Below are positions 691-50,968 of a DNA stretch of 64,000 bases, piece by piece. Every line of letters starts with the position of its first letter. Position 1 is the first letter of the stretch. The position numbers and the translations under genes are program-made. The stretch lies in NCBI GenBank assembly GCA_965153455.1, contig OZ234493.1, forward strand, positions 17,288,213 through 17,352,212. The letters are read 5' to 3'. The notes below the pieces were generated by a model. It was not told the DNA's origin and ran no database searches. It saw only the letters and a program-made list of their open reading frames with translations. The DNA is from Sphagnum compactum (Eukaryota).

Positions 691-3600
691 TACAGGAGGA
701 AGAAGGAGAAGAAGAAGAAGAAGCTGCACAAACAGGAACAAATACCTCAATATGCTAATCTTGGACCCACCTCAGGCTGTGGCAGATTCCGAAACTTTGG
801 TCTGTCATTGCATTAGAGTAGAAGGCCACCACTCAATAGAGCCCTGGGTGAGCCTCCTCTCTGACCAGGACAAGCCTTGCCAGTAGTTGCCTGTCTGGTA
901 TAGTGGCTTTCTCTTCCATGGCCATCACCAGGCCTTCATCGACACGGAACAGGATCACATAAGGATGAGGAAGACTAATTCTGGTGAGTATCCATAACTG
1001 CTTGAATAGGTATATGCATAATTTTTGAGCGAGAATATCTTGTTGCTCGGATTACTGGTAAACTATTGGATGGAAGGTCAGAACAATTTTGGGAAAATTG
1101 ACAATCCAAAAAACTTTTGGGACTCCTAAAAGCCCTTATTTTATTCAAGATACAGACAGCTATGAGGTCACCAGCTTGGTCACTGACATCATTCAGGTCG
1201 GTGCCCGGTAGTGTGATCTTCCGACCACCTGTCTTTGCAAATGTACCCCCACCACCCCTTTGCAAACCTGTCGGACTATTTCCTGGTAAGCATCCTAGAT
1301 ATATGGAGTTCCACACAACACCAACTATTTGCACCTGCAACCATACCCCTACCGCGAACCAAAATAATGTATTACCCATGGCTGGGATGGAGAGTATTCC
1401 AGAGAAAATCGTTGTGCTATCTTTGCGTCCATATATTGCAGTGGAAAGACAGTCCACCACCCTGGTACACAGTAGTTTATATCCCCGACCAGAGGATTGC
1501 TTCACCAGGGTCCCACTTACCGCACAGAGTTACGGTGATCTGGATCCAGAGGAGGAAACAATCGACCTGGCTCACAGTAGTAGGCTATCCTCGGGATGCA
1601 TAGAACACGAGCTCAAATCCCAGGACCACTACCAATGGGTCTCAGGCACTTTTCAAATTTTCCATTTCCTGCTCCCAGAAGCAAGTTCATTAACCCACAT
1701 TTGAAGGTTCACACGACCATTTTTGAAGCACAAAAAGTACTTCATGTCTCTGAAGAATGCTGAGAGAAAAAGGAATTTATATGAGCGCTCCATCATTACC
1801 TGAGATGGGTTTAGGGTGAGCAAGCCGTGCCAGAACTGTGTCCTCGATTACTTCCAGGAGTTGCTTTTGCTGCAGCAAACAAGCACCGGCACATTGTCAG
1901 ATGTCATCGACCTTGACACCGCATACGGGAGCCGTGAAAACAGAAAGCGAAAGCACGGGAAGGCACATCACGAGCGCGACATACGCTTTAATTGTCGGCA
2001 GAATCCAACATATTTTTGCACGACGTTGGATTCTGCCGTAAGAACATATTCTCCCTTTTTTTAGGCTGCCCAAAAAAGGCGCTCGCAGCTATTTTTTTGC
2101 GACGCGGCCTCAAAGGTGGGCGCAAAAACCACGGGGAGCATCATGGAGCTCGACTCGGAAATGCTCCCACTTGTACGGATTCGAAGAAGGACAGAAAGAA
2201 AAACAACGGGACCGGAGGAGCCCAGAAGAAGGGGAAGGGTTTAGGGTTTACAAAAAGGGGAAGAACCACCGAGTTAACAAACTCGAAACAAAGAGGGTTT
2301 AGGCTAGCCCAACGGATCCTGGCTCCAACTGGATGGACCCCACAGAGACACCGGGTTGAGTCCTACGGAACATGAGCGACAACAAGTCAATCGAGCGATC
2401 CTCCAGTGACATCCACCTCGGACCACCAGGTTTAGCTCCAGGTTGGCCATGAGCCCTACCAGAAGCAAATTATTTTGTGTTTACACCTTGATTACGTAAC
2501 AACCTGGATGAATCATACATTTGGTGAAGTTCCAGAAATTGATCGGGGAACGAGGGAGTGAGAGCCTACTAAACCATCGTCAAAACTAAGTCCATGCACC
2601 GGATAGCCCATCAAGGGAAGATTCTTCAGCCCATATTCATATGCACGCCCTTCCCAAGCCTGCTACAGACTTAAAACAAAAAAAAGTCCTGCCATCAATC
2701 TTGATTCTCCTTCAAACGTTGACGAAGGAAATGGCCATGGGGATAGTGGTACATGATTTGAGCACCAAATCTGTATTTCTTCTGCTGACAAATGTCGTCT
2801 AGCACACATTAAGAGAGCTTATTTTCGTACTTGCCATGTAGCCTTATCGACGGAGACTTTGGCATGCCTGCTCAAAGATCACGTATGCTAGAGATAACGG
2901 TGTTGTTTTCGCCTTCGCATTATAGTGGACGAGGGTGTAATCCATGTCATATCCAACAGTAGTGATCGTACGCAAACTTGGTGTACGGCTGCAAAGAAAT
3001 TCCTCGTGATGGTCTTCCATGCGGGTACTGTTTCTGCATACAATAGCAAAAGTCGTCTCTGAGCATCACTCGAATGCACCTGCTTTTCAGCACCCCAATC
3101 GATTATCACCAGTCTCTCCTGTTTCCTCCTTTCTTTGTTGTTTAGTGCAGACCAGGACCCCTTGCTGATAGAGGATCCCTGGGATCTGAGAGATCAAGTA
3201 TAGCTTGATAAGAGCACCAAAGTGCTTACCGAAATTTGTAGCTTCTGTAGATATGCCTCTGCCTGCCGTGTTCTCATTGTTGCAATCTCTGTACCGGAGT
3301 CCAATCCCTCATTCTCTAAAGCCATCAAAAGAGAGGGGGTTTAGGAGTATCAAGAGAAACATAACAGCATATATGGTGTAAGTATTGCAGTAGGAACGGA
3401 AAAACAAGTCTGATGGCACGAAGACTATGCGTCGATGGAAGGATGAGCTAGCCCAGAGTCAGGACCGGACCGGGAAAGCAGGTGCTATGAACGTAGCATG
3501 CAAAGGAACATCTCTCACCAAAGCTTCGAAATAATCTGATCCGTAGAAGTTTTGACTTGGGTTTCGATCGGGGGTTGTCAGTTGCTGCTGCTTCTGCAAA

Positions 3601-4724
3601 GATTGGATCCCAGATAGCCTCGTCTTGGGGATCATATGTTACTTGCCTCTTTTTCCATGCGTCTTTCTCTTGCTCCCACGCATCTTTTGTGCACACCCAC
3701 CTACCAACCAGGGTAAGACACCAGAAAGAGAACTAACAATTGCATGCGAAGTCCTTAATTTGAACTTGCTGTAACACAGAGTTTCTAATTCCGACAGACT
3801 TCTTGCAGCATTAAACATGTACAGCACAAGTTCGGTGGATGTCATACTAATACCCAAGATTGTTGCAGAAGAATCCAGATCACGACGGGCCAAGAGGACT
3901 CCGTTCATAACTCTCCATCGCATATACAGCTCTTTCAGAGTTACCAGAACCGGGAGTACGAGAGAGAAATGCATTCACCAACCTTATGTGCTTGCAGGGA
4001 GAAAATCAGTGAAGAAGATGTAGTGAATTTTAGTACCAGGAGCACCCCCTCTTCGGGGAACAAGGGCTCCATTCGTAACGATCGGGCCTCCCTCGTCTTG
4101 CCGATTTTGCAGGGACGGTTGCGAGCTGGGTAGATGCAACATCTGTCTGGTTGATGCATCGGCTTCTGGCCCATAATATCCTATAAAAATGCTTCTACAC
4201 CAACAGCAGGAACATTAGATTTGTTCCTCGTATGAAGATCATCAGGTGCTAATGAATGAACAGTGCTTTAAGTTCCTTCACCCCCATGTTTTTTCCACCT
4301 TTTGGATAAACCGGTGTAGATACGTATCTCCATCGGAAGCAATAAGGTCATGTTACGAAAGAGGTTCATGCTAAAAGAAACAAAAAGACATTGTGTCTGC
4401 TGACAGATTGTAAGTTCCGGTGTCGCTGGACTCCGAAGGAGCTGTAGTCTCTTTGAAAAGAGGCCTTTTTTTAACCATTAACAAGGCCAATTTAGTTGCT
4501 TGCAGGGTAGCTACAAGCCCACCACTTGAATAAAAGATGAGAGGCTCTAAAGACTTCACATGGGATCCGAATTTATTCTCTTCAGGATGTACCGGCCTGT
4601 TAGCATCTGGCATGTCCTGATCGTCTTCGGAATATTGTTCATGTTGCCAAAGGGAGCATCGAACCAGGTCCTGAGAGGATGTAACAAATTCCAAAGGACA
4701 CTCAGTCGGTGAGTTCATCGCATT

Positions 4725-4935
4725 TCACGGGGTGTAGTTTCACTGTACGGAGCACCAGTGTGGGCTGCAGATTTGAGAGCAGGAGCTGCTCTAGTCCTGG
4801 CAGGTATGGCAGCTGAGGGGACCCCGCACGTGGAAGGAGCAAGTCACGTTGACCGGGGCTACGAGAAATTAGATCACAAGTCGCATCTTCGCGGTGCATG
4901 AATTCGGAGCATTGCCTTGCCTACCATTTGACTCG
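4725..4935 (+). pseudogene. murA: MurA (UDP-N-acetylglucosamine enolpyruvyl transferase) C-terminal fragment
   Basis: Manual translation gives SLYGAPVWAADLRAGAALVLAGMAAEGTPHVEGASHVDRGYEKLDHK, matching the MurA C-terminal motifs DLRAGAALVLAG and HxDRGYE. A TGA follows at 4899 and no upstream exons are visible. Confidence 0.8.
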
Positions 4936-5339
4936 ACCATGTAGTACTCTGACGTTGAGGGGGAGGACGTAATTTTTGGGGTAAAGATATAATAAGGGTG
5001 GGGGGGAGGGGTTTAGGGGAATAATAAGGAAAGACATAGAAGGAAGGGACAAAAAGGGCGAAGAGTAAAAGAGTATAACATAAAGGGAAAAAGAATTAAA
5101 AAGGTGTAGCAAAATTTGCACGGAGGGAGAAATTATGGAAAAGATTTTGACAAAAGCGAAGAGGTTTAAGAGAAGCGAGAGAAAGGGAAACTTAAAGGTT
5201 ACAAAAGGTAGAAGCGACGTGAGAAAATATTTTGAACGTTAAAAAAGCAAAGGGATAAATATAGAAATAATATAAGCGGGGCAAAAGCAAAAAGATAGAT
5301 TGACTTAAGAGGGGGGAAGGGAAAGGATGCGAATGAGGA

Positions 5340-7000: not shown

Positions 7001-7006
7001 CCTATC

Positions 7007-8725: not shown

Positions 8726-8875
8726 GGGGGTCAAATTTTGGAATTTGGTGTTCCTAAATGAATGCATTCCTTACGATTCCTTCAAGTTCCCACCTAATGG
8801 CCAATGGCTTTTTGGTATGTTCCCTATGTTCCCAATAACATCACCCTTTCTGTTATAGGTTTTGACCCCAAGTTC

Positions 8876-29229: not shown

Positions 29230-31255
29230 ATCCACCGACTTTGCCAGCTTATGAGCTTCATCACGAATCAATCATGCGACAAAATTTGTTCAGAAGGAAC
29301 CAGTCAGCATAGAGTACGTCACCCATTCGTTAGTCATTTAGACCGACCGACCATCAATTGGTGAAAATATTGCGTGTGAGTCGCAAGGAGCAAACCTTCC
29401 TAAGGGGGTGCAAGGAAGGAGAATGAATCGAACGCCGAACGACCGCCATAGACGTAACACGGGTGGCAACTCTATTGCAATTCATTGAAACCGTGGGACA
29501 CCCCGGAATTGACCCATGAGGAAGTGTTTCCAAGTCCTATACATACGATGATGAGGCAAGATGCGTTGCATTCGGCTGGTCTAGAGCAAAATCTGGTTTG
29601 GAAGTCTTTCGAGCCAAATTTGTTCTTCAGAACGTGAGGATATCCAATTTTGCAACCGACCGACGTAACTGCCACAAGAATGAGGTCAACATCAGCGGAT
29701 GCTTGTGCATGAAACAACATTGAACGGATGCTCAAATGCATCACCGTAGCTCCTATAAGCGCAGTGGTTAGTGCTGTGCAGACTAGGAGGGCTTCCTCAC
29801 AGTGAAGCTCGGAACCACGGGAAAACTCGAAGACGAAGGTGTAGTCCATGCGAGCACGCTTCCGCATGTACAGGTTCCATCCATACATGTACATATGGAT
29901 GAGCACCAGCGCCACCGAGCTGTGCACCCATCAGACCGCGCACGCCAGAGGAGAGGAACGTTCGGACTATCTATCAGCGTCCACCTTCGAAAGGAAAGCT
30001 ACAAATTGCCTTCCTAAACAAAACATTTGGTGATTGTCCCTGAGTGAATTGGTCGGTAGAGAGGATAAATCAACGCGAGTAAGGGAATAAGATAGTGCCT
30101 GAAAGTTAAGAAAATGGTCCGCAAACAAGTCAAATATTTTATCTTTCCGTAATCCCCACCTAGTTGTAGTATGCCGCCAAATTAAATGCTAAGATCAGTA
30201 TCGATGAACGCCCGGTGGAAAACCCTGCGCAAGAGCAAGATGGAACCAGAATTTAGGACTCACAATTGTACACCAGAAATCTACGGCGCATCTCAATGAG
30301 CTTCAAATTTCCCGTAAGTAATACGATCGCAACACAACATTAGAGGCTCTGATGCTTCTCGCCTTATGAATGTATCAACCCCTTTTGCACCGACAACAAC
30401 AATTTATGCACTGGGATTTGGCTCTTTAAGGTGAAAGGGATGCCTCCATACAAAACCACTAAAAATGCAAACCCATGTTCGATGATGGTAATCATTTTTA
30501 TCATACCCGGTAAATACGTCGGACTGTGAGGGGCTATTCGGTGAATTAGTCTCGGTGCTGCCATGGCCTGTTGCTGATTACCGGACGTGAAACGCTCTGC
30601 AAATGTGACCTCTGCCTTCCCCGTAAGTTGACTTACCCGCCATATCCATGCACAATTGGGTACTTTCAGAAATCCACATTTTTCCTAGTTCATATAACAT
30701 ACAGGTTTCAAATCTTCTTCCTGGCCGTTGACTAATTAAGACCGGTCCTTCTATCAGCTGTCTCGGTAGTTGCAGAAATGACCTTGCAGATCATGAACAA
30801 GGGTCGTCAACCTTCTCGGAGGAATTGATGTGAGCACAATCCACATGATGCACATAGCTCAGAGCTATAAACGAATCCAACGACCTGCACCAACCCCCAG
30901 CAATTGTTGTACGAAAAGAGCACCCGACCACTCCAAAGTAGTCGAAACACTCACTCATAACTGAGAAACAAATCTCGTTGTAACTATTGTGAACAAAAGT
31001 CCTGAAAAACACATCGTCCATTCCGAGAAACTCGTCCTCCCAGGCTCGCAGCACGAGAAGAAAACTCCAAGAAAGACAAGCAGTCAGCTGAAATGTAGAC
31101 ACTATGCATGCTCCGAATACTCAAAACCTATCTCTGTTTGTGTTGCCAAAGCAAGGTGTCCAGAACTTCGGTCGAAGTTGGAGGAGGATAAACGGTGACT
31201 TTCTGAAACTGTTCTGCTTTCAATACGATTATGATATCCAAGATATGAGATCAAT
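29230..31255 (-). pseudogene. PHO1: PHO1-family pseudogene, copy 3 (more diverged, interrupted by the 336-bp array)
   Basis: VALVLIHMYMYGWNLYMRKRARMDYTFVFEFSRGSEL. Collinear with 22500-24070. Confidence 0.75.
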
Positions 31256-35188: not shown

Positions 35189-35210
35189 TTCGGTTCGACG
35201 AAGGAGGAAT

Positions 35211-35345
35211 CCTTGCCGGTATGGCAACTGAAGGGACCGCACACATCGCAGGAGTAAGTCGTGTTGGCTGGGGCCGGAGAAATTAGATCACCAGTCGCAT
35301 CTTCTTGGTGCATCGATTCAGAGATTGCCCAGCCTACCATTTGAC
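35211..35345 (+). pseudogene. murA: Second, more decayed MurA C-terminal fragment
   Basis: LAGMATEGTAHIAGVSRVG...EKLDHQSHLLGASIQRLP. DNA is similar to 4797-4931. Confidence 0.65.
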
Positions 35346-35459
35346 CTGACGACGTGGTACTTTCACCTTAAACGAGAACTTTGATTCGTTGCTGGCTCTT
35401 TCCCACCTCGGTGAAATGTGAATGTTTATGTGAGTCGCTCCCTCGAACGTCCAGTTTCA

Positions 35460-37155
35460 ATAGAAAATGACACGTCGAAGTCAATTTCCACCTTTTTGAA
35501 TCAATAGGCTCCTTAAAGGAACGCACTTCAGACAATACTGCTGCTGGTCGTGAAGCCAGCTCATCTTGGGTCCGTACGGTCTACTAATCCTTCGAGAATT
35601 CTGTGAGGCCATCCTATCACAAGTCGAAATTGAAGTTGCATGAGCATTCGTGATCACAACACGAATGACATAACCGGTAATGCCCTTTACAGTGCCAGTT
35701 ATTCTTGTAACATTGACCAGCTTTTTTGAACAGTCAAGCTTGGAGTGCAGATAGAACCTGGAGGTATCGATCTGTAATGAATTGAGGTGAAGTGGAAGTT
35801 TAGCAAACTAGGAGATCGCAAGATATGAGAAAACTTTCGGAACAGAGTAATAGAAGCATCTTCAATTCACTAAGAAAACTCCAGGTACGAAGTGGATGAA
35901 GAAGCTGATACAGTCGTGTAGTTTGCATTTCTTGGTACACGAAAACAAAGTAAAGGGTGCATGCTCTGTGGCGAAAAAAATGTGTCTTGCAATTCAAGTG
36001 CAATCCACTATTTTTTCGGTCTTGCAGCAGAATCTAGCATCCATTGGCGACAACTATACAAATTGTAGATTTTAGGGAAGCAACCTTCAATATTTCCGGT
36101 GGATGTTTTTCAAATTTCTTTTGGAAAATGGCCAATAGAACCTCAGGAGAGACAAGATTTGTACAACACCATTGTTAAGAGAAAAAAACGATCTCTTCGA
36201 ATACACTACTTGAAGGGTGAGCTGATTCCTCTGTCAATCGGGTTTAGGGTCTTAAGGTCGTCAGCTTTGTACTCGCCACTAAAAAATGACATGTTGAAGT
36301 CAATTTCAACCTTTTTGAATCAATAGGCTCCTTCAAGGAACGCACCTCAGACAATGCTGCCGCTGGTCGTGAAGCCAGCTCATCTTTTTGCTGTACGATT
36401 TACTAATTCTTCCAGAATTCTGTGAGGCTATCCTATCACAAGTCAAAATGGAGGTTGCATGAGCATTCGTGGTCACAACACGGTTGTGACATTCTGCGTA
36501 GTTAAGAATAACATAACCGGTAACGCCCGTTACAGTGCCAGTTATTCTGGTAACACTGACCAGCCTTTTTTGAACAGTCAAGTTTGGAGTGCAGATAGAA
36601 CTTGGAGATATCGATCTGTAACGAATTGAGGTGAAGGGGAAGTTTAGCAAACTAGGAGATCGCAAGATATGAGAAAACTCTCGGAATGGAGTCACCGAAG
36701 CATCTACAATTCACTAAGAGAGCTCCAGGTACGAAGTGGATGCAGAAGCTGATACAGTTGTGTAGTTTGCATTTCCTGGTACATGAAAGCAAAGTAGAAG
36801 GTGCATGCTTTGTGGCAAAAAAAATGTGTCTGCAAAATTCAAGTGCAATCCACTGTTTTTCGGTCCTGCAGCTGCGGCATCGTCGGTGAGCATTCCCAAA
36901 AGAATCCAACATGCATTGGCGACAACTCTACAAATTGCAGATTTTAGGGAGGCAACCTTCTATATTTTTGGTGAATGTTTTCAAATTTCTTTTGGAAAAT
37001 GGCCAAAAGAACCTCAGGAGAGAATCCACACGATTTGTACAACATCATTGTTAAGAAAAAGATGATCTTTGAATGCACTCCCTGAATGGTGAGCCGATTC
37101 CTCTGTCAATCGGAAGGTTCTCCGGGTCGTCAGCTTTTTACTCGCCAATAGAAAA
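35460..37155. repeat. Direct tandem duplication of ~820-870 bp, possibly a decayed LRR exon
   Basis: 35463 AAAATGACACGTCGAAGTCAATTT is repeated at 36284. The copies are collinear to 36280 and 37155. Confidence 0.85.
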
Positions 37156-37159
37156 TGAG

Positions 37160-37345
37160 ACATTAGGTATGTACAACAATTGAACGTCAAATATTATTGG
37201 AGTGCTGGGTGCTACTCTTAGTCTTCCGGTTGCAGCAGCCAGTCCAGGTTGGGAAATGCTAGCTGCCATATCAACAATGATCTCGTCATTAGTGCATAAC
37301 CAACAGATATCCACATATTGTAATCCAATTCCCTTCGATTTTTTT
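37160..37345 (-). pseudogene. FKBP-type PPIase fragment (chloroplast FKBP16-like), internally deleted
   Basis: GLQYVDI...GLAAATGRLRVAPSTPIIFDVQLLYIP resembles FKBP GLQYxDI and the C-terminal PRVPPNSPVIFDVxLxYIP. Confidence 0.55.
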
Positions 37346-37527
37346 AATCCGACCTTCTGAGAAGCTCTCGACGTTGTCGCAACCCCACCCAATTTATAGA
37401 CTCTGACGGTTGAACGCTCGTCGACTTCCCGCCGGTGCGCACGAAGCAAGATGTCGACAGCAACCGAAGGAGGCACGAACAATATGCCCGAAGGAGGCTA
37501 CCCGTCATCGGACTTACGATTGCAATC

Positions 37528-40500
37528 CTAAAATCGGCTTCTACATCTGTGGTCCCGCTCCAGCATTCGAATGCATGCATCCGCCAATCGTGCGAAGTTG
37601 GTAACGGACCGGCCGAAGGCCTTCAGTCCCATCCATCGAGCCAACTCTTCGTCGCGAGTGATGTTCGTCAATTCCGGCATGGCCTTGCGCACGTCCGACG
37701 GGTTGCGACGCCAAATGGCCCAAATAAGAATTCGATATCGTTCGCCCCGGATCTGACCCGGGCAATCCACACCGTACCTTCCTTCGTGCAATGGGACGTT
37801 GCCCAACGTTGGCCCGTTGTGTGAAAGGTGGCACTTGGGACAAACGTCGGGTGATTGGGGAATGGAATTACGACAATCCGACCTAGGATGCGGTCCCAGA
37901 CATTTGAAGCATCGACGACCATCCAGCAACAACGGACAATTTTGACTGGGGTGACGCACATTTCCATCACCGCCGTAAACACAGCACAAGAGACAATCGG
38001 GTTCTTCGGGAGCAGCGAATCGACGGAAATTCGTCAGGGCTGCGCGATCCTCGTTCACGAAAGAGGTGAGCGCCGTGCCACGCGCACTAAGCATCGGCAA
38101 TGGTGAGGGGGGTTGCTGCGACACCGCTCGTGATTGCTGCAAACAGTTGTCGCAGGGTTGTGCGACGGGAATCAGGCTGCATCGTTGCGGTTGGCCGTCC
38201 ACAGCCAAATGAAGATGGTAGCGTCGACAATTCTCCGTGTCCGTGATCCAAACGTTGGGCTCGGCGAAGGAGGAATCGAGGTGCAGAGCTTCGGCTCTAG
38301 ATCTCGTGTTCGAAATCACTCTGCTGGTACCTGGTCAGCCGTCACGGGCGAGTCGCCCGGACTCTTGGTGCAAAGCAGCAAAAGATCTGAAAGATCCGCG
38401 ATGAATGACGAGCCGGACCGACGGATAGTTGTACCCGCAGCTGATGACCCCAGTGGCCACCATGACACGCGCTTCGCCTGAGAGCCACGACTGCAATTGC
38501 GCCTTCTTAGCGTCGTCGTCGAGATGGGCGTGAAGGTGAGCGGTCCTCACGCACGCCACGTTGTTGGCCATGGACGCCACTTGCTCGACCGACTCTCGCG
38601 TCAAGCAATACACCATGGCCCTGTCCGTCTCGGAAGAAACGTTGCAATCCCATTCGATGAGCTGTTGAACGATTTCCTCGTCCACGTCGGCCACCTCGTC
38701 GACGACGTACTCGATCAGCGAGCGCACCGTGGACATCCGGATGACGGCGAATCTCGCGGACATCACAATCTTGAGGTCCGTCTCTTCGGAAGGGGAGAGC
38801 GAGGCCGTCAACGCGACGAGCTAGCATCCCACGACCCACAACGGCAAAAGGCGCTTCATGACGGGTCTGAAATCCGACAGCAGCAAATGCGCTTCATCCA
38901 CGACGACACAGTGAAGCTTTTTCAAATGGTTCAACGTATGCGCGAGTTCCACGAACCCGGGATTGGCCGCACGTTCCACCGATACGAACAAGATTGACGG
39001 AGGATCGTCGAATGTGACCGTGTCCGCGCCGTAGGTCGCATGTCGTAAGCCGGCTCGGGTCGCGTCCGCTTCGTGTCCGCGGACTAGGATCGTCAGGGGC
39101 ACCACCACGATGACGGTGCGAGCCGTCACCATCGGCGGGATCATGAACACAGCCGATTTGCCGTGTCCGGTGGGCATGACCACCAAAACATCGACCCTGT
39201 TTTCGAGGACCAACGTCACGGCCAAACCTTGTTCCTTGCACGTCCACTGTGCGTGGCCCAGTCGACGAAGGGCTCGCAGAGAACGCACTTCGTGCGTTTG
39301 ATCCTTGGGCGGTGGCGGCAAGGTCGGTTGAGGGACGGTCTGTGTGACCGAACACACGAGAGATGCGAGGAGAGAGGCGCACTGGGGTTGCGACGAACAA
39401 TGGCCGCCGTCGGGTCGGTCGACACCCACAGGAACCTCGTCGGTCGAATCGCCGGTCGGAGGGTTTCGGACCGGGCTACGGTCGAGTTGCAACAAGCGAT
39501 GCCACGCTTCGGCAGCCAATCTGTACGTGTACATCTGTTGACTGTCCATGAATCTGTGGTCGTTGGAACAATTGGCGTACTGTCGTGCGGCCGTGGTCGA
39601 AGAGTGCCCCGACGTCTCATCGATGGGAAATTCCGTGCAATAACTTTGCTTGATAGCACCACCGAAGTAAGCGGCCAGGTGACGATAATCCGCGATCCCC
39701 AGATCGAGATTTGCGCGCTCGAGGAACGCCGTGGCCACCAAACGGGAAACATCTTCGCCGTCCATGGCGACATCTCGTTCAATGGCCCAAAGGTCCATGT
39801 GTTGTCGGGCTGCGTCAATGTTTCCGCGCAAACCCGCGATGAAGGATTGCACCGGCCTCACTAGCAACATATATTCGATGAAGAGCGAATTGAGTTCCGG
39901 GGGTAGGAAACGGGGTATTAGTTTGACCGGCCGCCCTGCGTTGGCGCCCTTGTGGTATCTCTGGAAGGTCATGATGGTGCCCGCGGACCAATAAAATGTC
40001 CTTTCGGAATGCTCTGTGTTACGAAGGAGGTAGCTCCTGTACTCCTCGCCGCGAGGAGGACCGCCGGCGGTGAAATGCATGAGCAAAAATAACAACGCGT
40101 GCATACGATCCGCCGCCTTAGCCCACATCGCCAAAGCATTTTGATTCCATGCGATGGATCGGTCGCCTTCTGTGCCTTTGACGAAAAGACCTCGGGTACG
40201 CCGATCGCTAAAAAGGTGGATGGCAAGATCTTGTCCGTGACGATGAAATTCGTTACGGGCATCCGACAAGAAAGAATACCCGACTTCGTCTTCGTTCGCC
40301 CTGTCCGCGACGTTACCCTCCGCTATCACCCGGTCGATCCAGGTTGTCTGGAATCCTAGCAACAATTGGTTTCTCATCACCCGATTTGCCTCGCGGAGCA
40401 GTTCGCTGACCAGGTTTCGTAAAGTGTCGATGGTGACGGCTTGACCATCGATCGTGCACGCCATGGGACCGATCCGAACGAGTCTCGGGATGCAGGGTTC

Positions 40501-41043
40501 GTCGCCTGACACCGCCCCCGCGAGGCGCATGGTCTCCCGCAGTCTGCTGAACGGTGTGTCCTTGGCGTTCTCGCGAACGCAAGCGAGCCACTCGTCGGCT
40601 TCACACCACGGGATGGGGGGGTGATCGGGCTGCCACATCGGACGCACCAGCTGCATGAGGATCGTGCATCTCCACCAATACTGGAGAATGGCTATGGGAC
40701 CCGACACGCGTCGAACGTGTTCGAAAGCGAGGTTGTTTGACGAAGGGTCCGACTTCAGGCTGTTCACGATCATGAACCTGATTATCGGACAACCGGTTTG
40801 GAGCCCGTGTTGAACGACCGGACACGTCGGCGGTTTGCAAATGTGGAGCAACACCGTGTGGATGGGAACGAGATCTTCGTCATCCCCATCCGCGTCTCGT
40901 CGACTTCGGATGTGAGAGATGAGATTCTCCAGCGCATCTCCGAGATCCGAATGCAAATCGCCCAGAACGTTGACGAATGGCTCGTCATCCACTGGGGCGC
41001 TGTCCCTGGATCGGACCATCATAGTGAGCAGCTTGGTCATCAA
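37528..41043 (-). pseudogene. Telomere-linked helicase (TLH-like): tyrosine-recombinase-like domain + RecQ-type DEAH helicase + Zn-binding/CCHC C-terminus; 5'-truncated, two in-frame stops
   Basis: ORFs 38821-41043, 38335-38811 and 37528-38319 share one frame (~1171 codons), separated only by TAG (38821-23) and TGA (38335-37). Helicase motifs: MPTGHGKS (I), VVVPLTIL (Ia), DEAH (II), LVALTAS (III), MVYCLTR (IV), VMVATGVISCGYN (V), QESGRLARDG (VI). RecQ Zn motif CRR...C...CDNC and knuckle CFKCLGPHPRSDC follow. Confidence 0.85.
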
Positions 41044-41049
41044 CGTACA

Positions 41050-43537
41050 AGGGTTTAGGGTTTAGGGTTTAGGGTTCAGGGTTTAGGGTTTAGGGTTTAG
41101 GGTTTAGGGTTTAGGGTTTTAGGGTTTAGGGTTTAGGGTTAGGGTTTAGGGTTTAGGGTTTAGGGTTTAGGGTTTAGGGTTTAGGGTTTAGGGTTTAGGG
41201 TTTAGGGTTTAGGGTTTAGGGTTTAGGGTTTAGGGTTTAGGGTTTAGGGTTTAGGGTTTAGGGTTTAGGGTTTAGGGTTTAGGGTTTAGGGTTTAGGGTT
41301 TAGGGTTTAGGGTTTAGGGTTTAGGGTTTAGGGTTTAGGGTTTAGGGTTTAGGGTTTAGGGTTTAGGGTTTAGGGTTTAGGGTTTAGGGTTTAGGGTTTA
41401 GGGTTTAGGGTTTAGGGTTTAGGGTTTAGGGTTTAGGGTTTAGGGTTTAGGGTTTAGGGTTTAGGGTTTAGGGTTTAGGGTTTAGGGTTTAGGGTTTAGG
41501 GTTTAGGGTTTAGGGTTTAGGGTTTAGGGTTTAGGGTTTAGGGTTTAGGGTTTAGGGTTTAGGGTTTAGGGTTTAGGGTTTAGGGTTTAGGGTTTAGGGT
41601 TTAGGGTTTAGGGTTTAGGGTTTAGGGTTTAGGGTTTAGGGTTTAGGGTTTAGGGTTTAGGGTTTAGGGTTTAGGGTTTAGGGTTTAGGGTTTAGGGTTT
41701 AGGGTTTAGGGTTTAGGGTTTAGGGTTTAGGGTTTAGGGTTTAGGGTTTAGGGTTTAGGGTTTAGGGTTTAGGGTTTAGGGTTTAGGGTTTAGGGTTTAG
41801 GGTTTAGGGTTTAGGGTTTAGGGTTTAGGGTTTAGGGTTTAGGGTTTAGGGTTTAGGGTTTAGGGTTTAGGGTTTAGGGTTTAGGGTTTAGGGTTTAGGG
41901 TTTAGGGTTTAGGGTTTAGGGTTTAGGGTTTAGGGTTTAGGGTTTAGGGTTTAGGGTTTAGGGTTTAGGGTTTAGGGTTTAGGGTTTAGGGTTTAGGGTT
42001 TAGGGTTTAGGGTTTAGGGTTTAGGGTTTAGGGTTTAGGGTTTAGGGTTTAGGGTTTAGGGTTTAGGGTTTAGGGTTTAGGGTTTAGGGTTTAGGGTTTA
42101 GGGTTTAGGGTTTAGGGTTTAGGGTTTAGGGTTTAGGGTTTAGGGTTTAGGGTTTAGGGTTTAGGGTTTAGGGTTTAGGGTTTAGGGTTTAGGGTTTAGG
42201 GTTTAGGGTTTAGGGTTTAGGGTTTAGGGTTTAGGGTTTAGGGTTTAGGGTTTAGGGTTTAGGGTTTAGGGTTTAGGGTTTAGGGTTTAGGGTTTAGGGT
42301 TTAGGGTTTAGGGTTTAGGGTTTAGGGTTTAGGGTTTAGGGTTTAGGGTTTAGGGTTTAGGGTTTAGGGTTTAGGGTTTAGGGTTTAGGGTTTAGGGTTT
42401 AGGGTTTAGGGTTTAGGGTTTAGGGTTTAGGGTTTAGGGTTTAGGGTTTAGGGTTTAGGGTTTAGGGTTTAGGGTTTAGGGTTTAGGGTTTAGGGTTTAG
42501 GGTTTAGGGTTTAGGGTTTAGGGTTTAGGGTTTAGGGTTTAGGGTTTAGGGTTTAGGGTTTAGGGTTTAGGGTTTAGGGTTTAGGGTTTAGGGTTTAGGG
42601 TTTAGGGTTTAGGGTTTAGGGTTTAGGGTTTAGGGTTTAGGGTTTAGGGTTTAGGGTTTAGGGTTTAGGGTTTAGGGTTTAGGGTTTAGGGTTTAGGGTT
42701 TAGGGTTTAGGGTTTAGGGTTTAGGGTTTAGGGTTTAGGGTTTAGGGTTTAGGGTTTAGGGTTTAGGGTTTAGGGTTTAGGGTTTAGGGTTTAGGGTTTA
42801 GGGTTTAGGGTTTAGGGTTTAGGGTTTAGGGTTTAGGGTTTAGGGTTTAGGGTTTAGGGTTTAGGGTTTAGGGTTTAGGGTTTAGGGTTTAGGGTTTAGG
42901 GTTTAGGGTTTAGGGTTTAGGGTTTAGGGTTTAGGGTTTAGGGTTTAGGGTTTAGGGTTTAGGGTTTAGGGTTTAGGGTTTAGGGTTTAGGGTTTAGGGT
43001 TTAGGGTTTAGGGTTTAGGGTTTAGGGTTTAGGGTTTAGGGTTTAGGGTTTAGGGTTTAGGGTTTAGGGTTTAGGGTTTAGGGTTTAGGGTTTAGGGTTT
43101 AGGGTTTAGGGTTTAGGGTTTAGGGTTTAGGGTTTAGGGTTTAGGGTTTAGGGTTTAGGGTTTAGGGTTTAGGGTTTAGGGTTTAGGGTTTAGGGTTTAG
43201 GGTTTAGGGTTAGGGTTTAGGGTTTAGGGTTTAGGGTTTAGGGTTTAGGGTTTAGGGTTTAGGGTTTAGGGTTTAGGGTTTAGGGTTTAGGGTTTAGGGT
43301 TTAGGGTTTAGGGTTTAGGGTTTTAGGGTTTAGGGTTTAGGGTTTAGGGTTTAGGGTTTAGGGTTTAGGGTTTAGGGTTTAGGGTTTAGGGTTTAGGGTT
43401 TAGGTTTAGGGTTTAGGGTTTAGGTTTAGGGTTTTAGGTTTGGTTTAGGGTTTAGGGTTTAGGGTTTAGGGTTTAGGTGTTAGGGTTTAGGGTTTAGGGG
43501 TTTAGTGGGTTTTAGGGTTTTAGGGTTTAGGGTTTAG
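41050..43537 (+). repeat. Telomeric array (TTTAGGG)n, ~2.5 kb
   Basis: Near-perfect Arabidopsis-type repeat, G-strand on +. A few variants occur proximally and the last ~150 nt are degenerate. Confidence 0.99.
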
Positions 43538-43737
43538 NNNNNNNNNNNNNNNNNNNNNNNNNNNNNNNNNNNNNNNNNNNNNNNNNNNNNNNNNNNNNNN
43601 NNNNNNNNNNNNNNNNNNNNNNNNNNNNNNNNNNNNNNNNNNNNNNNNNNNNNNNNNNNNNNNNNNNNNNNNNNNNNNNNNNNNNNNNNNNNNNNNNNNN
43701 NNNNNNNNNNNNNNNNNNNNNNNNNNNNNNNNNNNNN
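43538..43737. other. Scaffold gap (200 N)
   Basis: Round-number N run. Confidence 0.99.
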
Positions 43738-46229
43738 GGGAGTGCTTCGGTGCCTGATGATGCAACGTTCTGAATGAATTGGTAGCATCGAAATTAATTT
43801 TACCAGGATGTCTGACCACAACTTCTTTGGGTACAGCACCCTGATCTGGAAATTGCACGCCACATATAAGCTTTTAAGACATTCTCCTCATAAATCCAGC
43901 ATACTTTGACATCGTGTCTCATATTGTACGGATGCAGGGAACTCCTGTGCAAGCCTGCCGGAGTCAGGTTACCTTGATACGAATGATGAGCCGATTGATT
44001 CAATAGCGAAGGCAACCCTTGCAGCAACATCTTTAACCGGTGGGCCGTGGAGGAGAAGAACCGTGGATTCCTGGGAGCTTGCTTTTGGATCCGACGCAGG
44101 TTTGATTCCTTCGGAAGTTGCTGCAGGGACTCTCCTCGCTCACAAGAGCTTCTATGTATGGATCCCAAATTAGATGGAGCCTACCTCGGTCTGCCCCTGT
44201 GGCAATGACCTCAGCAATCTCCGAGATGCTATGGGAGGATGTGTTTTGTCAGTCAAAAAGATTGATGACCGACTGTATAGGACAAGAAGACATTGCCTTC
44301 GGCCGAAAGAAGGTTCCAAGTGCTGCAGACGTGCTGCGGGTGGCATTCATCGACTTCTACCGAGGGCTTGGTATGCTGAAGAGCTTCAGGTTTCGTACAT
44401 TTTCTACCTTTGAGGCTCAAAGTGCTCGAGACTCTGGCCTTGGGTACTCTCATCTTTTCTCTTCCTATTTGTAGCCACTTGTCATTTTCTTCTTCTATTT
44501 CACAGTTCTTCAGTGCTCTGGCTCGAGACTCTGGCCTTGGGTACTCTCATCTTTTCTCTTCCTATTTGTAGCCACTTGTCATTTTCTTCTTCTATTTCAC
44601 AGTTCTTCCGTGCTCTGACCTGTCGAGCGGATGTTCACGTGTTTTCTTTGTCCTATCTTTGTTTTTATGCTGACCTGATATGTTGCGATCTACTCTTTGG
44701 GCCCTTGTCGCTTCAAGTTGTTGCTGCAATCAAATTTACTTCGCTTGATTGTTGCGTGTGTCTGGAGGCATGCATCTCGACTGGCTGTTAACTCCTTGTT
44801 TCTCTCCTGCTTACACTCGTTCTAGGAGATCGCTCATCCTGCCATCCTAACGTGCATCTCCCTTGTGAATGAACCCAGTCCAGAACCCTGACAATCATTG
44901 CGGGGATATTGTGGCAGCTCCTTGAACATGGCTGCTTTTGCAAAAATATTACAGAAATATGAGAGGGTTGTTTGACTTCTTCCGGCCTTGTTGATCTCAT
45001 ATCTTGGATATCATGATCCTATTCAAAGCACAACAGTTTCGGAAAGTCACCGTTTATCCTCCTCCAACTTAGACCAAAGTTCTGGACACCTTGCTTTGGC
45101 AACACGAACAGAGATAGATTTTGAGTATTCGGAGCATGCACAGTGTCTACGTTTTAGCCGACGGCTCGTCTTTCTCGGAGTTTTCTTCTTGTGCTGCAAG
45201 CCTGGGAGGATGAGTTTCTCGAAATGGACGATGCGTTTTTCACAACTTTTGCTCACAATAGTTGCAATGAGATTTGTTTCTCGGTTACGAGTGTTTCGAC
45301 TACTTTGGAGTGGTCGGGTGCTCTTTTCATACGACAGTTGCTGGGGGTTGGTGCAGGTCACCGGTTTGTTTATAGCTCAAAGCTATATGCATCATGTGGA
45401 TCGTGCTGACATCAATTCCTCCGAGAAGGTTGACGACTCTTGTTCCTGATCTGCAAGGTCAATTCTGCAACTATTGAGACCGCTGATAGAAGGACTGGTC
45501 TGAATTGGTCGACAGCTAGGAAGAACATTTGAAACCTGTATGATATATGAACTGGAAAAAATGTGGACTTCTGACTTATGGGGAAGGTGGAGGTCACATT
45601 CGCAGAGCGTTTCACGTCAGGTAATCAGCAGCAGGCCGCGGCAGCACTGAGACCGATTCACCGACCAGCCCCTCACAGTCTGACGTATTTACCGGGTATG
45701 ATAAAAATCATTACCGTTGTCGAACACGGGTTCACATTTTTAGTGGTTTTGTATGGAGGCATCCCTTTCACCTTAAAGAGCCAAATCCAAGTGCATAAAT
45801 TGTTGCTGTCCGTGCATTCATAAGGTTGATACGTTCATGAGGCAAGAAGCATCGGAGCCTCCAATGTTGTGCTGTGGTTGTATTACTTACCGAAAATTTG
45901 AAGCTCATTGAGATCATCCGTAGATTTCCGGTGTACAATCGTGAGTTCTAAATTCTGGTTCCGTCTTGCTCTTGTGCAGGGTTTTTCACTTGGCGTTCGT
46001 TGATACTGATCTTAGCATTTGGCTGCGTACTGCAACTGGACGGGGATTACAGAAAGATGCAATATTTGACTCATTTGCAGACCATTTTCCCAACTTTCAG
46101 GCACTATCTTATTGCCTTACTCGCATTTATCCTCTCTACTAACCAATCCACTCAGATATAATCACCGAATGTTTTGTCCAGGACAGCAATTTTTTAGCTT
46201 TCCTTTCAAAGGTGCATGCTGATAGATAG
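43738..46229 (+). pseudogene. PHO1: PHO1-family pseudogene, copy 4 (inverted near-copy of copy 1)
   Basis: Reverse complement of 10164-12559. It shares copy 1's deletion and has an extra ~97-bp tandem duplication at ~44424-44615. Confidence 0.8.
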
Positions 46230-47506
46230 TCACGACCATACTTATTAACTTGCTTAAGTAATCTTTTAATTCTTGTCATCTGCCCTAAACAACCCTTTAT
46301 TTTCAACTCAAAACTAAAACAATTACTTATTAACTTGCTTAAGTAATCTTTTAATTCTTGTCATCTGCCCTAAACAACCCTTTATTTTTCAACCCAAAAA
46401 CAATTACTTATTTACTTGCTGCCCGAAGTTTTTTTTGGTGTTTTTTTTTCCGGGGGTCAATACCTGACTTGGGCTCCGCGTGACATGACATTACCCATGT
46501 GCAACTCATTTTAGATATTTTTAAAAATTCATTTAAAAAAACGTTTCATATGACATGGTCACATTTCGTTCATCTATGGATAACTATATTTTTATGATCA
46601 ATTACATGAAAATCAACTACCTACTTAATTAAGTTTATTTTATTTTAGCTCAGATTTAATTAATTAAACCAACCCTAACCCCCCCCCCCTATGAACTTGT
46701 AAAAAGAAAACCCCCCTCTCATCCCTTTTCAACATAGAAAAAAAACTCCCTCCCATCCCCCTTCAACATATTAAAAAAAAAAACCCTTTCATGTTCCCCC
46801 TGTCCCTAGCCACTCCACAATGAAAAAACAAAATTTAAAAAAAAAATCATCCTTTTCCCTTCCTCCTTCCACATGTCAAATGAAGGCAAAAAAGAAACAT
46901 TACCGTCCACCCCCTTCCCCCTCAACAGTGAAAAAAGAAGAAAAAAATCAAGGTGCACCCTTTCCCCCGGTGCACCCTTTCCCCCGTCCCATAATGAATT
47001 TGTAAAAAAAATTACCCCCTTCCCCTCCCTAGCCTCTCCACAATGAAAAAAACATTTCCAGAGCCCTTAAATTAACCCCTTTCCCCCCTCCTCCTTCCAC
47101 ATTTCCAATGAAGGGGAAAATAAAAACATCAACCTCCACCCCCCTCCCTCCCTCCCCCTCAACAGTCAAAAAAATGAAAGAAAAAAATCAAGGTGCACCC
47201 TTTCCCCCCCCCTCACACAATGAATAAAATATAAACCCTGGCCCTCTTGGCCCAATAAAAAATAATTTATCAAAGTTACAAGCAATAACAAAAAGTAACA
47301 AACCTTACCCCTTTCATCAGTAAAAAGTAACTTACAAAACTTACGACCAGTAAAAAAAAGTAACAAAAAGTAACAAAAAATGAAAAAGGTCAACAAATAC
47401 AGCCAAGCATTACACTAAAACAGCCAAGCATCGCTTTGTTTTTTTCCTGGTCAAACAGCCACCAGCCACCGGCATTACACTCGTAATGCCCGAATCATAC
47501 CTTAAG
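46230..47506 (+). mobile_element. ~1.3-kb Helitron-like element (inverted copy of 8876-10163)
   Basis: TCACGACC 5' end, and hairpin GGCATTAC-ACTC-GTAATGCC near the 3' end. Confidence 0.55.
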
Positions 47507-47699
47507 GAACTTGGGGTCAAAACCTATAACAGAAAGGGTGATGTTATTGGGAACATAGGGAACATACCAAAAAGCCATTGGCCATTTGGTGGGAACTTGA
47601 AGGAATCGTAAGGAATGCATTCATTTAGGAACACCAAATTCCAAAATTTGACCCCCTGTCTTGTCCCTACCCACTCCACAATCAAAAAACAATATTAAA

Positions 47700-47737
<38 letters not shown>

Positions 47738-48823
47738 TCCCTTCCTCCTTCCACATGTCAAATGAAGGCCAAAAAAAAAAAACATACACCTCCACCCCCC
47801 TCCCCCTCAACAGTAAACAAAAAAAGAAAATAATCAAGGTGCACCCTTTCCCCTGGTGCACCCTTTCCCCCGTCTCCACAGTAAAAAGTAATTTCCCTAA
47901 AATTACAGCCAGTAACAAAAAGTAACAAAAAGTAACATCTCTTACCCCTAAACCCAGTAAAAAGTAACTGTCAAAACTTACCACCAATAAAAAAAGTAAC
48001 TAAAAGTAACTAAAGTCAACAAAAACAGCCCGGCACCATGCTAAAACAGCCCGGCACCATGCTGTATAAAACCTGGTCAAACAGCCCCCAGCCCCCAGCA
48101 TTATGCCCATGATGCTCGGATCATACCTTAAAGATCAAACCGATGACCCCGAGTCATTCCTCGCGAACTGAATGTGACTGGCATTGACTCGAACTACTTC
48201 TCGTTGCTTATCTCCGTTGATGTTTGTTTGGGCAGTCCGGTGGGTGAACTCTTGGGCTCGCATAACACCGAAGAAGAAGTAGCCCACTACCGAAATCGTG
48301 CACGAGTTCCTTGGGCTCTTTACCCGCAGCTGGATCGACCGAGTTTTGTTTTTCCTTTCTTATCCTCTTTGTTCTCGTTGAACCCCTGGCTTAGTACAGC
48401 CGGATCCTTGGCTGCTTCAAGGTCGTCTTCTCGGCCTTCCTATCGTGTGCTGTCATCGTTGCGGCGGGCATGAACCTTGCAAGCCTGCGTTCAAATTTAC
48501 GGAGAGATAAAAACAACGATCGAAAAACACTTACACTTCAGAAATTATTTCTCGTTTTCTGGTTATTGCTGAAGAACAAGGCTATTCGAAAATAAAACAA
48601 AATAGCCTGAGAAACTGAAAAAAAAAAAAAAGGGGGGGGGGAAAGAAAGAATTATCAGAAAAAATATTAGTAATCTTTTTCGTTTTGTGGAAATGAAATC
48701 TCACTTTCTAATTATTATTTAGAAAACCTTTTTGAAAAAAAAATTGAAAAAAGAAAAAGACAAGGAATGCATAAAACACAAAGAAAAAAAGACCCAAACA
48801 AAAAAAAGATAAAGAAATGGGGA

Positions 48824-49398
48824 TCTTATATTCTTATATAGTAAAGGACGTCGTGCACGAAATGAAGCTTTCCATCCATCCGTCCGTCGCATCATCCATC
48901 TTGTCATCTGTCCCGTCATCCATCCAAACACAACAAATATATATCTTAAAAAGGGACCCTAAATGTACCCATTTCCCCGTCCTCTTTCCACCCTAAACCC
49001 ATATATCTAGGCGAAAAAATGTACCCATTTCCCCCCTCCCCCTCAACAGTAAAAAAAAAATTAAAAAAATGCATCAAGGTGCACCCCTAAAACCCCCCCC
49101 CCTCACACAATCAACCCAATATAAACCCTGGGCTTCTCCACAGTAAAAAGTAATTCCTAAAACTTACGAGCAGTAAAAAAAGTAACAAAAAGTAACTAAA
49201 CTTACCCCTTTTAGCAGTAAAAAGTCATTTACAAAACTTACGACCAGTAAAAAAAGTAACTAAAAGTAACTAAAAGTGAAAAAAAGTCAACAAAAATCGC
49301 CCGGCACTGCGCGAAAACCGCCCGGCACTCCTGTGTATTTTCTCTGGTCAAACCGCCCGCCGCCCCCGGCATTACAATCGTAATGCTCCGATTACTAA
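48824..49398 (+). mobile_element. Non-autonomous Helitron-like element (copy of 7007-7561)
   Basis: A|TCTTATATTCTTATATAG 5' end; GCATTAC-AATC-GTAATGC hairpin then CTAA. Confidence 0.6.
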
Positions 49399-50968
49399 GA
49401 TAGGTTGTTTGCACGCAAGGGAAACTGTTACGAAAAGTGAAAAAGTAGATTTGTATGTATAGGTTTGAACCAAGGTGGAACATGTCCTAAACCATCACGC
49501 AAGTACCCTACAGTACATGACAACTTCTCTACATGAGTTTTGTAATTCCATAAGTGGAGTTGTATGTTTGTTTGACCATATAAGGTGCGCCTTGTGAGTT
49601 GGGTTAGTGGAACATTCTTTAGTAGCATTGTTTATCAATATTGTCCAATATTGATTATCATTTACTAAATCAATACCAAAAAAAACCTCAACCTCCGCCC
49701 CCTCTTCTTCAACACATCAAAAAATCAAAATAAATAAATAAAGGCGCACCCCCTCCCTTGACCCTTGACCCCCTATCCCTAGCCACTCCACGATGAAAAA
49801 ACAAAATTTAAAAAAAAAGAAAAAAAGACACCCCTTTCCCTTCCTCCTTCCACATGTCAAATGAAGGAAAAAAAAAACATTACCCTCCACCCCCCCTCCC
49901 CTTCAATAGTAAAAAAAATAAGAAAAAAAAATCAAGGTGCACCCTTTCCCCCGTCCCATAATGAATTTGTAAAAACCCTAAACCCCTGGTGAACCCCTCC
50001 CTATCCTCTCCACAATGAACAAAACATTTCCAGAAAAACCCAATGTACCCCTTTCCCCCCTCCTCCTTCCACCTTTTCATATATATATAGGGGAAAAAAA
50101 ACATTGACCCCCACCCCCCTCCCCTTCAACAATAAAAAACAGAATAAAAAAAATCAACTTGCACCCTTTCCCTCGGTGCACCCTTTCCCCCGTCCCATAA
50201 TGATTTTGTATAAAACAGTACCCCCTTCCCCTCCCTAGCCTCTCCACAATGAAAGAAAAACATTTCCAGATTACCTTAAATGTACCCCTTTCCCCCCTCC
50301 TCCTTCCACCTTTTCATATGTATACGAAAAAGAAAATATTAACCTCCACACCCTCCCCCCTTAAAAGTAAAAAAAAAAGAAGGAAAAAAATCGAGGTGTG
50401 CACCCCTTTCCCCCCTCGCACAATGAATAAAATATAAACCCTGGCCTTCCTGGCCCAGTAAAAAGTAATTTATGAAAGTTACAAGTAGTAAAAAAAGTTT
50501 TAAAAAGTAACAAACTTTACCTCTGTTTCAACAGTAAAAAGTAACTTATAAAAGTTATGAGCAGTAAAAAAAAGTAACAAAAAGTGAAAAAGGTCAACGA
50601 AAACAGCCCTGCACTACGGTAAAACAGCCCCACACTGCGGTGCTTTTTTGGTGGTCAAACAGCCCCCAACCCCGCGCACTGCGAGCGTAGTGCGCAGATC
50701 ATATGTATAGGAATCCATCTCACTTGAGCATTGATTTAGTGTGATTAAATTACATGCATCGAGGTGAGGAGAAGAGAGCTCGCCAACAATTTGGTGACCA
50801 ACGAGCCGACAGAATTATCAATGAGCACCGGGAAAAATCTGGCCCCCATCAACATTGCCTAACCAAACAGCTCAAAAACAATGTTCATGGGGCCTCCCCT
50901 AATAGCCTCAGAAATTATGCATGTGAGTAAGTTTTTATTAAAATAAATTTCTAGATTATTATTCCTTA

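Follow-up and report, generated by a model that had tools for sequence, protein, structure and literature searches.

A telomere-capped TLH helicase pseudogene in the moss Sphagnum compactum and the predicted fold of its TLH domain

The truncated frame and its telomere junction

We analysed a window of 64,000 nucleotides from the moss Sphagnum compactum (assembly GCA_965153455.1, contig OZ234493.1, positions 17,288,213 to 17,352,212 of the forward strand), in which a broken gene from the family of telomere-linked helicases (TLH) directly adjoins a long (TTTAGGG)n array. The window is the whole of this stretch, and all coordinates below are counted from its first letter. The gene, the open reading frames (ORFs) that compose it and the adjoining telomere are laid out as follows.

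37528..41049, minus strand: TLH-family pseudogene truncated at its 5' end; 1170 codons counted from the Met at 41040, final stop codon at 37528-37530, homologous to fuller copies from 41049 on
38821-41061, minus strand: stop-to-stop ORF of 746 aa, in the same frame as the next two
38335-38820, minus strand: stop-to-stop ORF of 161 aa, same frame
37528-38334, minus strand: stop-to-stop ORF of 268 aa, same frame
38821-38823, minus strand: in-frame TAG at codon 740, which is CAG in the 12 closest copies
38335-38337, minus strand: in-frame TGA at codon 902; among the 55 loci covering this codon, CGA in 20, CAA in 27 and TGA in 0
41050..43537, plus strand: (TTTAGGG)n telomere array of ~355 units and ~2.5 kb, with 98% matches
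43538..43737, no strand: scaffold gap of 200 N, directly after the telomere array

Reading through the three minus-strand ORFs gives 1170 residues from the first Met (41040). The two in-frame stops interrupt the frame, no frameshift does, and the helicase frame is free of introns. The GC content is 0.57-0.59 over 38-41 kb, compared to 0.41-0.44 in the adjoining DNA. The coding part of the copy has a GC content of 0.576 (0.667 at third codon positions, GC3) and an observed/expected (o/e) CpG ratio of 1.27, compared to 0.81 in the flank. These values agree with the first-pass annotation, made from the letters of the stretch, which had described a single GC-rich, intronless frame of ~1170 codons next to (TTTAGGG)n in GC-poorer DNA. 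It had also read the gene as belonging to a mobile or multi-copy family. A scan of one metagenome collection returned 132 candidate stretches, 100 of which encode relatives, in keeping with that reading. We kept 80 related loci, 58-92% identical, which are cited below as L followed by a number. Comparison with these copies bears on both stops. The CAG of the 12 closest copies indicates that a private C>T change at a CHG site (H being any base other than G) created the TAG at codon 740, and the absence of TGA from all 55 covering loci, with CGA in 20 of them, indicates that the TGA at codon 902 is a private C>T change at CpG.

The scaffold gap follows the array directly, so positions 1-43537 form one contig that ends in telomere repeats, and 43738-64000 belong to a separate contig joined on by scaffolding. 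A contig end that bears a telomere has thus been placed inside a scaffold. A three-unit telomere pattern matched 331 times in the window and 0 times in shuffled sequence. As at a true chromosome end, the G-strand of the array points 5'->3' to the end of the contig; the array is more degenerate in its final ~300 bases. The TLH copy is on the minus strand, its 5' end faces the telomere, its reading direction leads away from the chromosome end, and its open frame passes without a stop into the (TTTAGGG)n repeats. In L007, residues 444-843 of an 843-aa ORF align to window 41049-39850 with 82% identity. Since this homology reaches 41049 and the repeats start at 41050, ~410-440 N-terminal codons, together with everything distal to them, were cut away exactly at the telomere. 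The pattern at the junction suggests a terminal break or erosion that was capped by telomerase. Being a truncated pseudogene, the window copy cannot itself act. We conclude that the feature is genuine: a TLH-family member carried by a plant, here in the form of a telomere-capped pseudogene.

Two further observations concern contig ends. L010, a complete metagenome contig with ~81% DNA identity to the window copy, starts at window-frame codon 2-3, within 6 nt of the truncation point in the window; this closeness could be accidental, or the assembly may have broken at a similar junction. The contig beyond the gap opens, within 43738-50600, with a ~7 kb inverted copy of window 7758-14540 (95-100% identical, including 1827 nt at 100%). 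It may represent a further chromosome end, or the same repeats may have been assembled twice.

Domains of the family protein and the fold of the TLH domain

The following domains and motifs were located in the stop-bridged protein of the window copy.

39481..40398, minus strand: TLH domain, residues 215-520, with a predicted tyrosine-recombinase-like fold; R330, K364, R453, H479 and Y488 conserved
38788..39231, minus strand: helicase ATP-binding lobe, Pfam DEAD at residues 604-751 (E 1.2e-16)
38338..38658, minus strand: helicase C-terminal lobe, Pfam Helicase_C at residues 795-901 (E 1.2e-13)
38143..38229, minus strand: cluster of four Cys (C938, C954, C963 and C966) located where the RecQ Zn-binding subdomain would lie and almost invariant across the family
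37819..37995, minus strand: three Cys/His knuckle-like motifs, residues 1016-1074

The helicase core is of the RecQ type. Walker A lies at residues 623-629, DEAH at 715-718 and motif VI at 891-901, and the best solved relatives of residues ~595-915 are RecQ5, RecQ, BLM, RecQ1 and WRN, with E values of 1e-22 to 1e-15. Pfam revealed no RQC, HRDC or RecQ_Zn_bind domain in the window copy, and no Pfam model matches its Cys/His knuckles or its C-terminal tail. The RecQ motifs and the knuckle tail of the first-pass annotation are therefore present in the frame. Its RecQ zinc motif stands as a conserved four-Cys cluster and fails as a Pfam match, the window copy lying below the RecQ_Zn_bind model that 3 of 28 aligned relatives reach. 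A Helitron, which would pair a Rep HUH nuclease with a Pif1-type helicase of superfamily 1 (SF1), was considered and rejected: the helicase is a RecQ-type member of superfamily 2 (SF2), and the Pfam scans revealed no Rep domain.

The intact family protein has ~1600 residues, and its intronless gene is part of a repeated unit that measures at least ~10 kb. Its order from N to C terminus is C2H2/OrsD zinc fingers, the tyrosine-recombinase-like TLH domain, the RecQ-type SF2 helicase with its Zn cluster, and the Cys/His knuckles. The Pfam model OrsD, a double C2H2-like module, matches L007 (E 3e-9) and L012 (E 1.8e-10), and plain C2H2 patterns are likewise N-terminal. Among the 28 aligned relatives OrsD was detected in 18 and both helicase domains in 27. 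In their alignment the N-terminal part shows, in fixed order, two CxxC...HxxxxH motifs and then GQPAR..E, YHK, YRH and an AGHS..TA...Y region; the RecQ motifs, a CRR...C...CD.C cluster and CxxC...H....C knuckles follow. The window copy has no N-terminal C2H2 motifs because it is truncated at the telomere, and fuller copies of the family have them. Published accounts, cited here and below from excerpts, describe TLH proteins of several fungi and of Monosiga as carrying two N-terminal C2H2 motifs, a TLH domain of ~250 residues and a RecQ helicase, some with C-terminal Cys/His motifs (10.1101/2024.02.27.582403; 10.1101/2022.03.07.483234). The bryophyte family has this whole published architecture in common with the fungal proteins, in line with the TLH assignment made at first pass.

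The region in front of the helicase is characteristic of these proteins. Residues 215-590, used as the query, matched 1717 proteins at E <= 1e-3 among 1.84 billion representatives; many of these are 1100-1900 aa long, with the match placed just before their helicase. A word-indexed search with the TLH domain alone found 5 proteins. The proteins in this comparison do not bear the TLH name, the TLH domain being known from the excerpted published description. No Pfam model, recombinase models included, matches the TLH domain of the window copy; Pfam Phage_integrase is reached by 1 of the 28 relatives (E 3.4e-4). Language-model look-alikes that bear family names were Phage_integrase, Integrase_2 and NDC10_II, at scores of 0.83-0.85 that serve as leads only.

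An AlphaFold2 model of the TLH domain, built from a 41-row alignment, reached a predicted local distance difference test score (pLDDT) of 82 and a predicted template-modelling score (pTM) of 0.78. When this model was compared with 48,161 solved chains using VIA-align, 21 of the 23 top rows were tyrosine recombinases or integrases, or type IB topoisomerases, judged by title. They comprise Xer, Cre, phage, integron and Tn1549 integrases, Flp and type IB topoisomerases. The best match was 4a8e_A (Z 10.8, root-mean-square deviation 2.9, 152 aligned residues); rows of unrelated proteins appear only at Z values below 4. R330, K364, R453 and Y488 are invariant and H479 is at least 90% conserved in 28 sequences, and the same columns are conserved in 41 sequences. 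From the order of the motifs, we infer that the R-K-R-H-Y residues hold the catalytic positions. The fold and these residues suggest that the TLH domain may have recombinase activity. A search of one literature collection, supplements not covered, found no paper linking TLH genes to tyrosine recombinases.

Bryophyte relatives, decay of copies and the repeated unit

Relatives of the window copy are annotated in further bryophyte genomes. In Sphagnum jensenii a relative that is 83% identical over 343 aa lies on a 15.9-Mb contig, in Sphagnum balticum one lies on a 19.4-Mb contig, and the liverwort Calypogeia fissa has a relative of 1097 aa that is 36-41% identical. The named relatives outside bryophytes are all fungal (Penicillium, Fusarium, Didymella, Aureobasidium, Parastagonospora and Schizosaccharomyces octosporus), and the window copy is 20-27% identical to the named fungal proteins. 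The TLH domain aligns with the Penicillium and Fusarium proteins; those of Didymella, Aureobasidium and Parastagonospora match the family profile and are among the rows of the trees described next.

Quick maximum-likelihood trees were computed under two models from 58 rows and 663 columns, the rows being cut to their matching part, with support from the Shimodaira-Hasegawa-like approximate likelihood ratio test (SH-aLRT). The rows were 51 TLH-like and 7 canonical RecQ sequences; plant RecQ and proteins named TLH were not among them. Under both models the two sets lie on opposite sides of a branch with an SH-aLRT of 100. The window copy groups with the Calypogeia protein and four others (SH-aLRT 98), then with a fifth (99), and the Schizosaccharomyces octosporus protein lies inside the same large clade. 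A phylogeny of the stop-bridged protein had been proposed with the first-pass annotation as a check, and it places the protein apart from the canonical RecQ rows, among which there is no plant RecQ.

The ratio of non-synonymous to synonymous substitution rates (dN/dS) is 0.16-0.36 against all 19 copies tested (dS 0.13-0.74), so the lineages behind today's copies carried a working protein. Base composition changes as copies diverge. The window copy and its closest relatives have a GC content of ~0.56 and a CpG o/e of ~1.25; as divergence grows, the GC content drops from 0.57 to 0.38 and CpG o/e declines from 1.3 to 0.26, the most diverged copies having a GC content of ~0.38 and a CpG o/e of 0.26-0.43. 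With the window copy as the reference, the C>T rates in the five most decayed copies tested were 0.46-0.49 at CG, 0.36-0.41 at CHG and 0.18-0.19 at CHH sites, and the decayed copies show no excess of CpA over CpC. C>T changes biased toward CG and CHG are the decay expected of repeats that are methylated in the plant way, not of fungal repeat-induced point mutation (RIP). Sequencing runs of one organism (3 studies) contain ~0.6 of the sampled words of the stretch, and moss-metagenome runs contain ~0.4; RNA runs hold 0.08-0.10 of the words, which gives no evidence of expression. Together, the plant-type telomere repeat, the relatives in two Sphagnum species and a liverwort, and the CG/CHG decay show a long residence in bryophyte genomes, as the first-pass choice of a plant host implied, and make fungal contamination or a mis-join very unlikely.

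The frame is part of a larger repeated unit, of which the window holds two pieces, and a satellite stands at the break between the unit and the preceding DNA.

35208..37527, minus strand: non-coding 3' part of the repeated TLH unit, common to other copies
2117..4958, minus strand, same orientation: second, separate fragment, from the distal 3' region of the TLH unit, matching DNA downstream of TLH in L030, L041, L047, L050 and L064
31290..35187, no strand: satellite of 335 bp in 11.6 units, abutting the broken 3' end of the TLH unit and found in 0 of the 80 related loci

On the 5' side of the frame ~2.5 kb of sequence is shared between loci and on the 3' side >3.7 kb, with end points that differ from locus to locus. 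Homology of the window unit stops at 35208 where other copies continue, and window 2117-4958 is the continuation of the unit broken there. The 3' part contains an internal duplication of ~844 bp (35721-35987 and 36565-36831). L064 (19.7 kb) holds several TLH 3' fragments side by side and in both orientations, forming a cluster of pieces of the TLH unit. L002, L003, L030, L025 and L027 share a single foreign sequence over their first ~120 nt, which ends in ...GGTTGCGACA. It meets the TLH copies at codons that vary (about 41, 580 and 58), and the junctions are most simply explained by another repeat family that inserted into TLH copies.

Of the 80 metagenome loci, 4 have short telomere-like repeats at TLH sequence or close to it, which is only suggestive. 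In L065 a TLH copy beginning at codon ~815 is immediately adjoined by about five TTTAGGG units (338-380). Their G-strand lies 5' of the sense strand, opposite to the arrangement in the window, so the junction resembles less a break that was healed than TLH sequence that became attached to the far side of a short, old telomere tract. L040 has a 22-bp telomere-like insertion (GGTTTAGGGTTTAGGGTTTGCA) within the reading frame at 3400-3440, with TTTGCA on both sides. L047 has inverted arms of 74 nt (1248-1321 and 8913-8986; 92% complementary), each ending in short, inward-pointing telomere repeats. The arms flank 7.6 kb with a 5'-truncated TLH copy and belong to a ~60-150-bp tandem repeat; a 21-nt motif of theirs was found neither in the window nor in the other 79 loci.

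The remainder of the window is rich in repeats. Large segmental duplications of 87-99% identity occupy 1-31250, where 56-696 recurs at 20689-21327 and 7601-7900 at 27620-27919; a further stretch in this identity range, 10162-11399, recurs at 22765-24041 and 30184-31251. A G-rich 29/58-bp minisatellite (unit like AAAGCGNGGTAAGCGGGAG) with a GC skew of ~0.5 lies at 5340-7001 and 26639-26916. An 85-bp repeat with telomere-like TTTAGGG motifs forms ~2.2 tandem units at each of 9972-10154, 18814-18995 and 46239-46420, one of them inverted. A 390-bp tandem repeat (51646-53230; 4.1 units, 93% identity) has weak matches beside the TLH copies in L040 and L076. An Rfam scan of the window gave 0 matches, and no gene-like ORF of at least 180 aa was found in the window outside the helicase, those listed being low-complexity minisatellite frames.

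Proposed origin, rival explanations and known systems

The best explanation as a whole, to which we assign a probability of roughly 0.55, is that the family is a selfish element of chromosome-end-like repeat DNA and that the window copy was broken, capped by telomerase and then mutated. In this scheme a chromosome end would have eroded or broken inside the gene and would then have been capped by telomerase. Antisense TLH sequence followed by (TTTAGGG)n-3' is the orientation expected for healing, and it supports a capped break. The two private C>T nonsense changes would have hit the copy after capping. The element would live in subtelomere-like repeat DNA and would persist through functional copies, its protein being under purifying selection. 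It may spread by its own recombinase and helicase chemistry, with unwinding assisting a phosphotyrosine strand exchange, or because chromosome ends recombine ectopically. Silencing of the copies by the host would follow, they would then decay by methyl-cytosine deamination, and the window copy would represent the end state: truncated, capped and carrying two nonsense changes.

Several results weigh against this explanation. No terminal repeats or target duplications were found at the TLH unit, the ends of which vary by locus, and transposition is at most a possibility. A currently active copy is not apparent either, since an intact full-length frame occurs in 0 of the 80 related loci, the longest ORF having 843 aa. 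Among the copies compared, a long telomere array was seen at that of the window only. With regard to the fold, a Foldseek search of the Protein Data Bank gave no match at E <= 0.001; its top rows are the same kinds of recombinase and are weak (E 0.07-1). In the TLH domain the classical HxxR box has no conserved His. Catalytically dead folds of the tyrosine-recombinase kind exist, and Ndc10 rows were among the fold matches at Z 4.4-5. Finally, the 5' end of the window TLH faces the telomere, compared to the 3' end in M. oryzae as given in the excerpted account.

A broader proposal is that TLH genes in general, rather than being host helicases, encode the enzyme of an ancient class of chromosome-end elements, spanning eukaryotes, in which a tyrosine recombinase is combined with a RecQ helicase. 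Bryophytes, namely Sphagnum and a leafy liverwort, would harbour a living branch of it that was either gained ahead of the moss-liverwort split or transferred from fungi and that still seeds new copies at plant telomeres. We advance this proposal tentatively and regard it as doubtful. The fold result bears on all TLH genes, and if the TLH domain is an active tyrosine recombinase, the telomere location of TLHs would be explained by their being recombinase-driven selfish elements.

The strongest rival, which we consider unlikely, is that the gene is a passive passenger of subtelomeric segmental duplication. It would have been acquired or inherited once and copied between ends by ectopic recombination or break-induced replication, and the recombinase-like domain would be structural or DNA-binding. 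The long, mosaic build of the repeated unit, with several kb of shared non-coding 3' DNA, internal duplications and satellites, fits this account, as do the side-by-side TLH fragments of L064, the missing element termini, the large segmental duplications that make up the first 31 kb of the window, and both the dead recombinase folds and the Ndc10 rows mentioned above. An R-K-R-H-Y set that is invariant, or nearly so, in 28 distant relatives would be unexpected for a merely structural domain, however. The dN/dS values also indicate that the protein itself was kept, and at least 100 copies with deep subfamilies fit an element better than a few duplicated ends.

A host gene family for telomere upkeep appears improbable. 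The gene would provide a recombination-based back-up on telomere failure, as has been proposed for the S. pombe tlh genes and yeast Y'-Help1. The gene adjoins a telomere, its protein is under purifying selection, its helicase class includes the telomere-acting WRN and BLM, and the idea is discussed for fungal TLH genes in the excerpts. Against this, all 80 related loci and the window copy are broken, old copies show the decay pattern of silenced repeats, and M. oryzae ends without TLH propagate normally according to the published excerpt.

It is very unlikely that the gene comes from a fungal (endophyte) contaminant mis-joined to plant DNA, or from a chimeric read at the telomere junction. Such an origin would account for the fungal identity of the nearest named non-bryophyte relatives and for a GC content 15 points above the flanks. 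It does not fit a TTTAGGG repeat on a 43.5-kb contig whose other repeats recur beside TLH copies in independent contigs, nor the relatives at 83% identity annotated on the 15.9-Mb and 19.4-Mb Sphagnum contigs. The CG/CHG-biased C>T changes of decayed copies without CpA excess, the presence of the stretch in runs of 3 studies of one organism, and the low identity to named fungal proteins (20-27%) speak against it as well. A diverged paralogue of ordinary plant RecQ genes, for which the RecQ-like helicase core would speak, can be dismissed given the lack of introns and of RQC or HRDC domains, a 590-residue N-terminal region common only to TLH-like proteins, the separation of 51 TLH-like from 7 canonical RecQ rows (no plant RecQ among the rows) and the lack of any plant protein among the named ones in the 120 matches listed.

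Several known systems share parts of the family's make-up. Canonical RecQ helicases (RecQ, RECQ1, BLM, WRN and RECQ5) resemble the core at ~25-32% identity, within the E range of 1e-22 to 1e-15 given above, and the four-Cys cluster sits at their Zn-binding position. They differ in that the TLH protein is without RQC and HRDC, carries additional modules at both termini and groups in a clade of its own. Cryptons, DIRS-like elements and Xer, Cre and phage integrases have the catalytic-domain fold and the R-K-R-H-Y set in common with the TLH domain; Crypton is named in the excerpts as a tyrosine-recombinase transposon. In contrast to these elements, the TLH protein is fused to a RecQ helicase and zinc fingers, its unit has no defined ends, and the HxxR His is not conserved. 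The Y' helicase of S. cerevisiae (Y'-Help1), called a highly diverged RecQ helicase and discussed together with TLH genes in the excerpts, is likewise encoded by a subtelomeric, multi-copy repeat that adjoins telomere repeats.

TLH genes are treated in the excerpts as a fungal subtelomere feature with one choanoflagellate case, and one paper, in its excerpt, states that no TLH was found outside fungi. Our literature search found no paper reporting TLH genes in mosses or other plants. A resident, selected, multi-copy family in bryophytes widens the range of this kind of gene to land plants, and Sphagnum and liverworts offer systems for testing the role of TLHs at chromosome ends in a TTTAGGG/telomerase background. 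The fungal TLHs are the closest parallel. The domain order of the bryophyte family is that described for M. oryzae TLH1, S. pombe Tlh1/2, U. maydis UTASa, BcTLH, the F. oxysporum TLHs and the Monosiga brevicollis TLH, a likeness drawn from the excerpted descriptions and not from direct alignment. The window TLH is GC-rich, compared to the AT-rich subtelomeric RecQ gene described for M. graminicola, and the bryophyte host and the TTTAGGG telomere set it apart from the fungal TLHs. Both groups, as the excerpts describe the fungal one, are multi-copy and intronless, with many copies broken by truncation, stops and transposon insertions, and M. oryzae telomere 1 is truncated within the TLH frame in the same way as the window copy.

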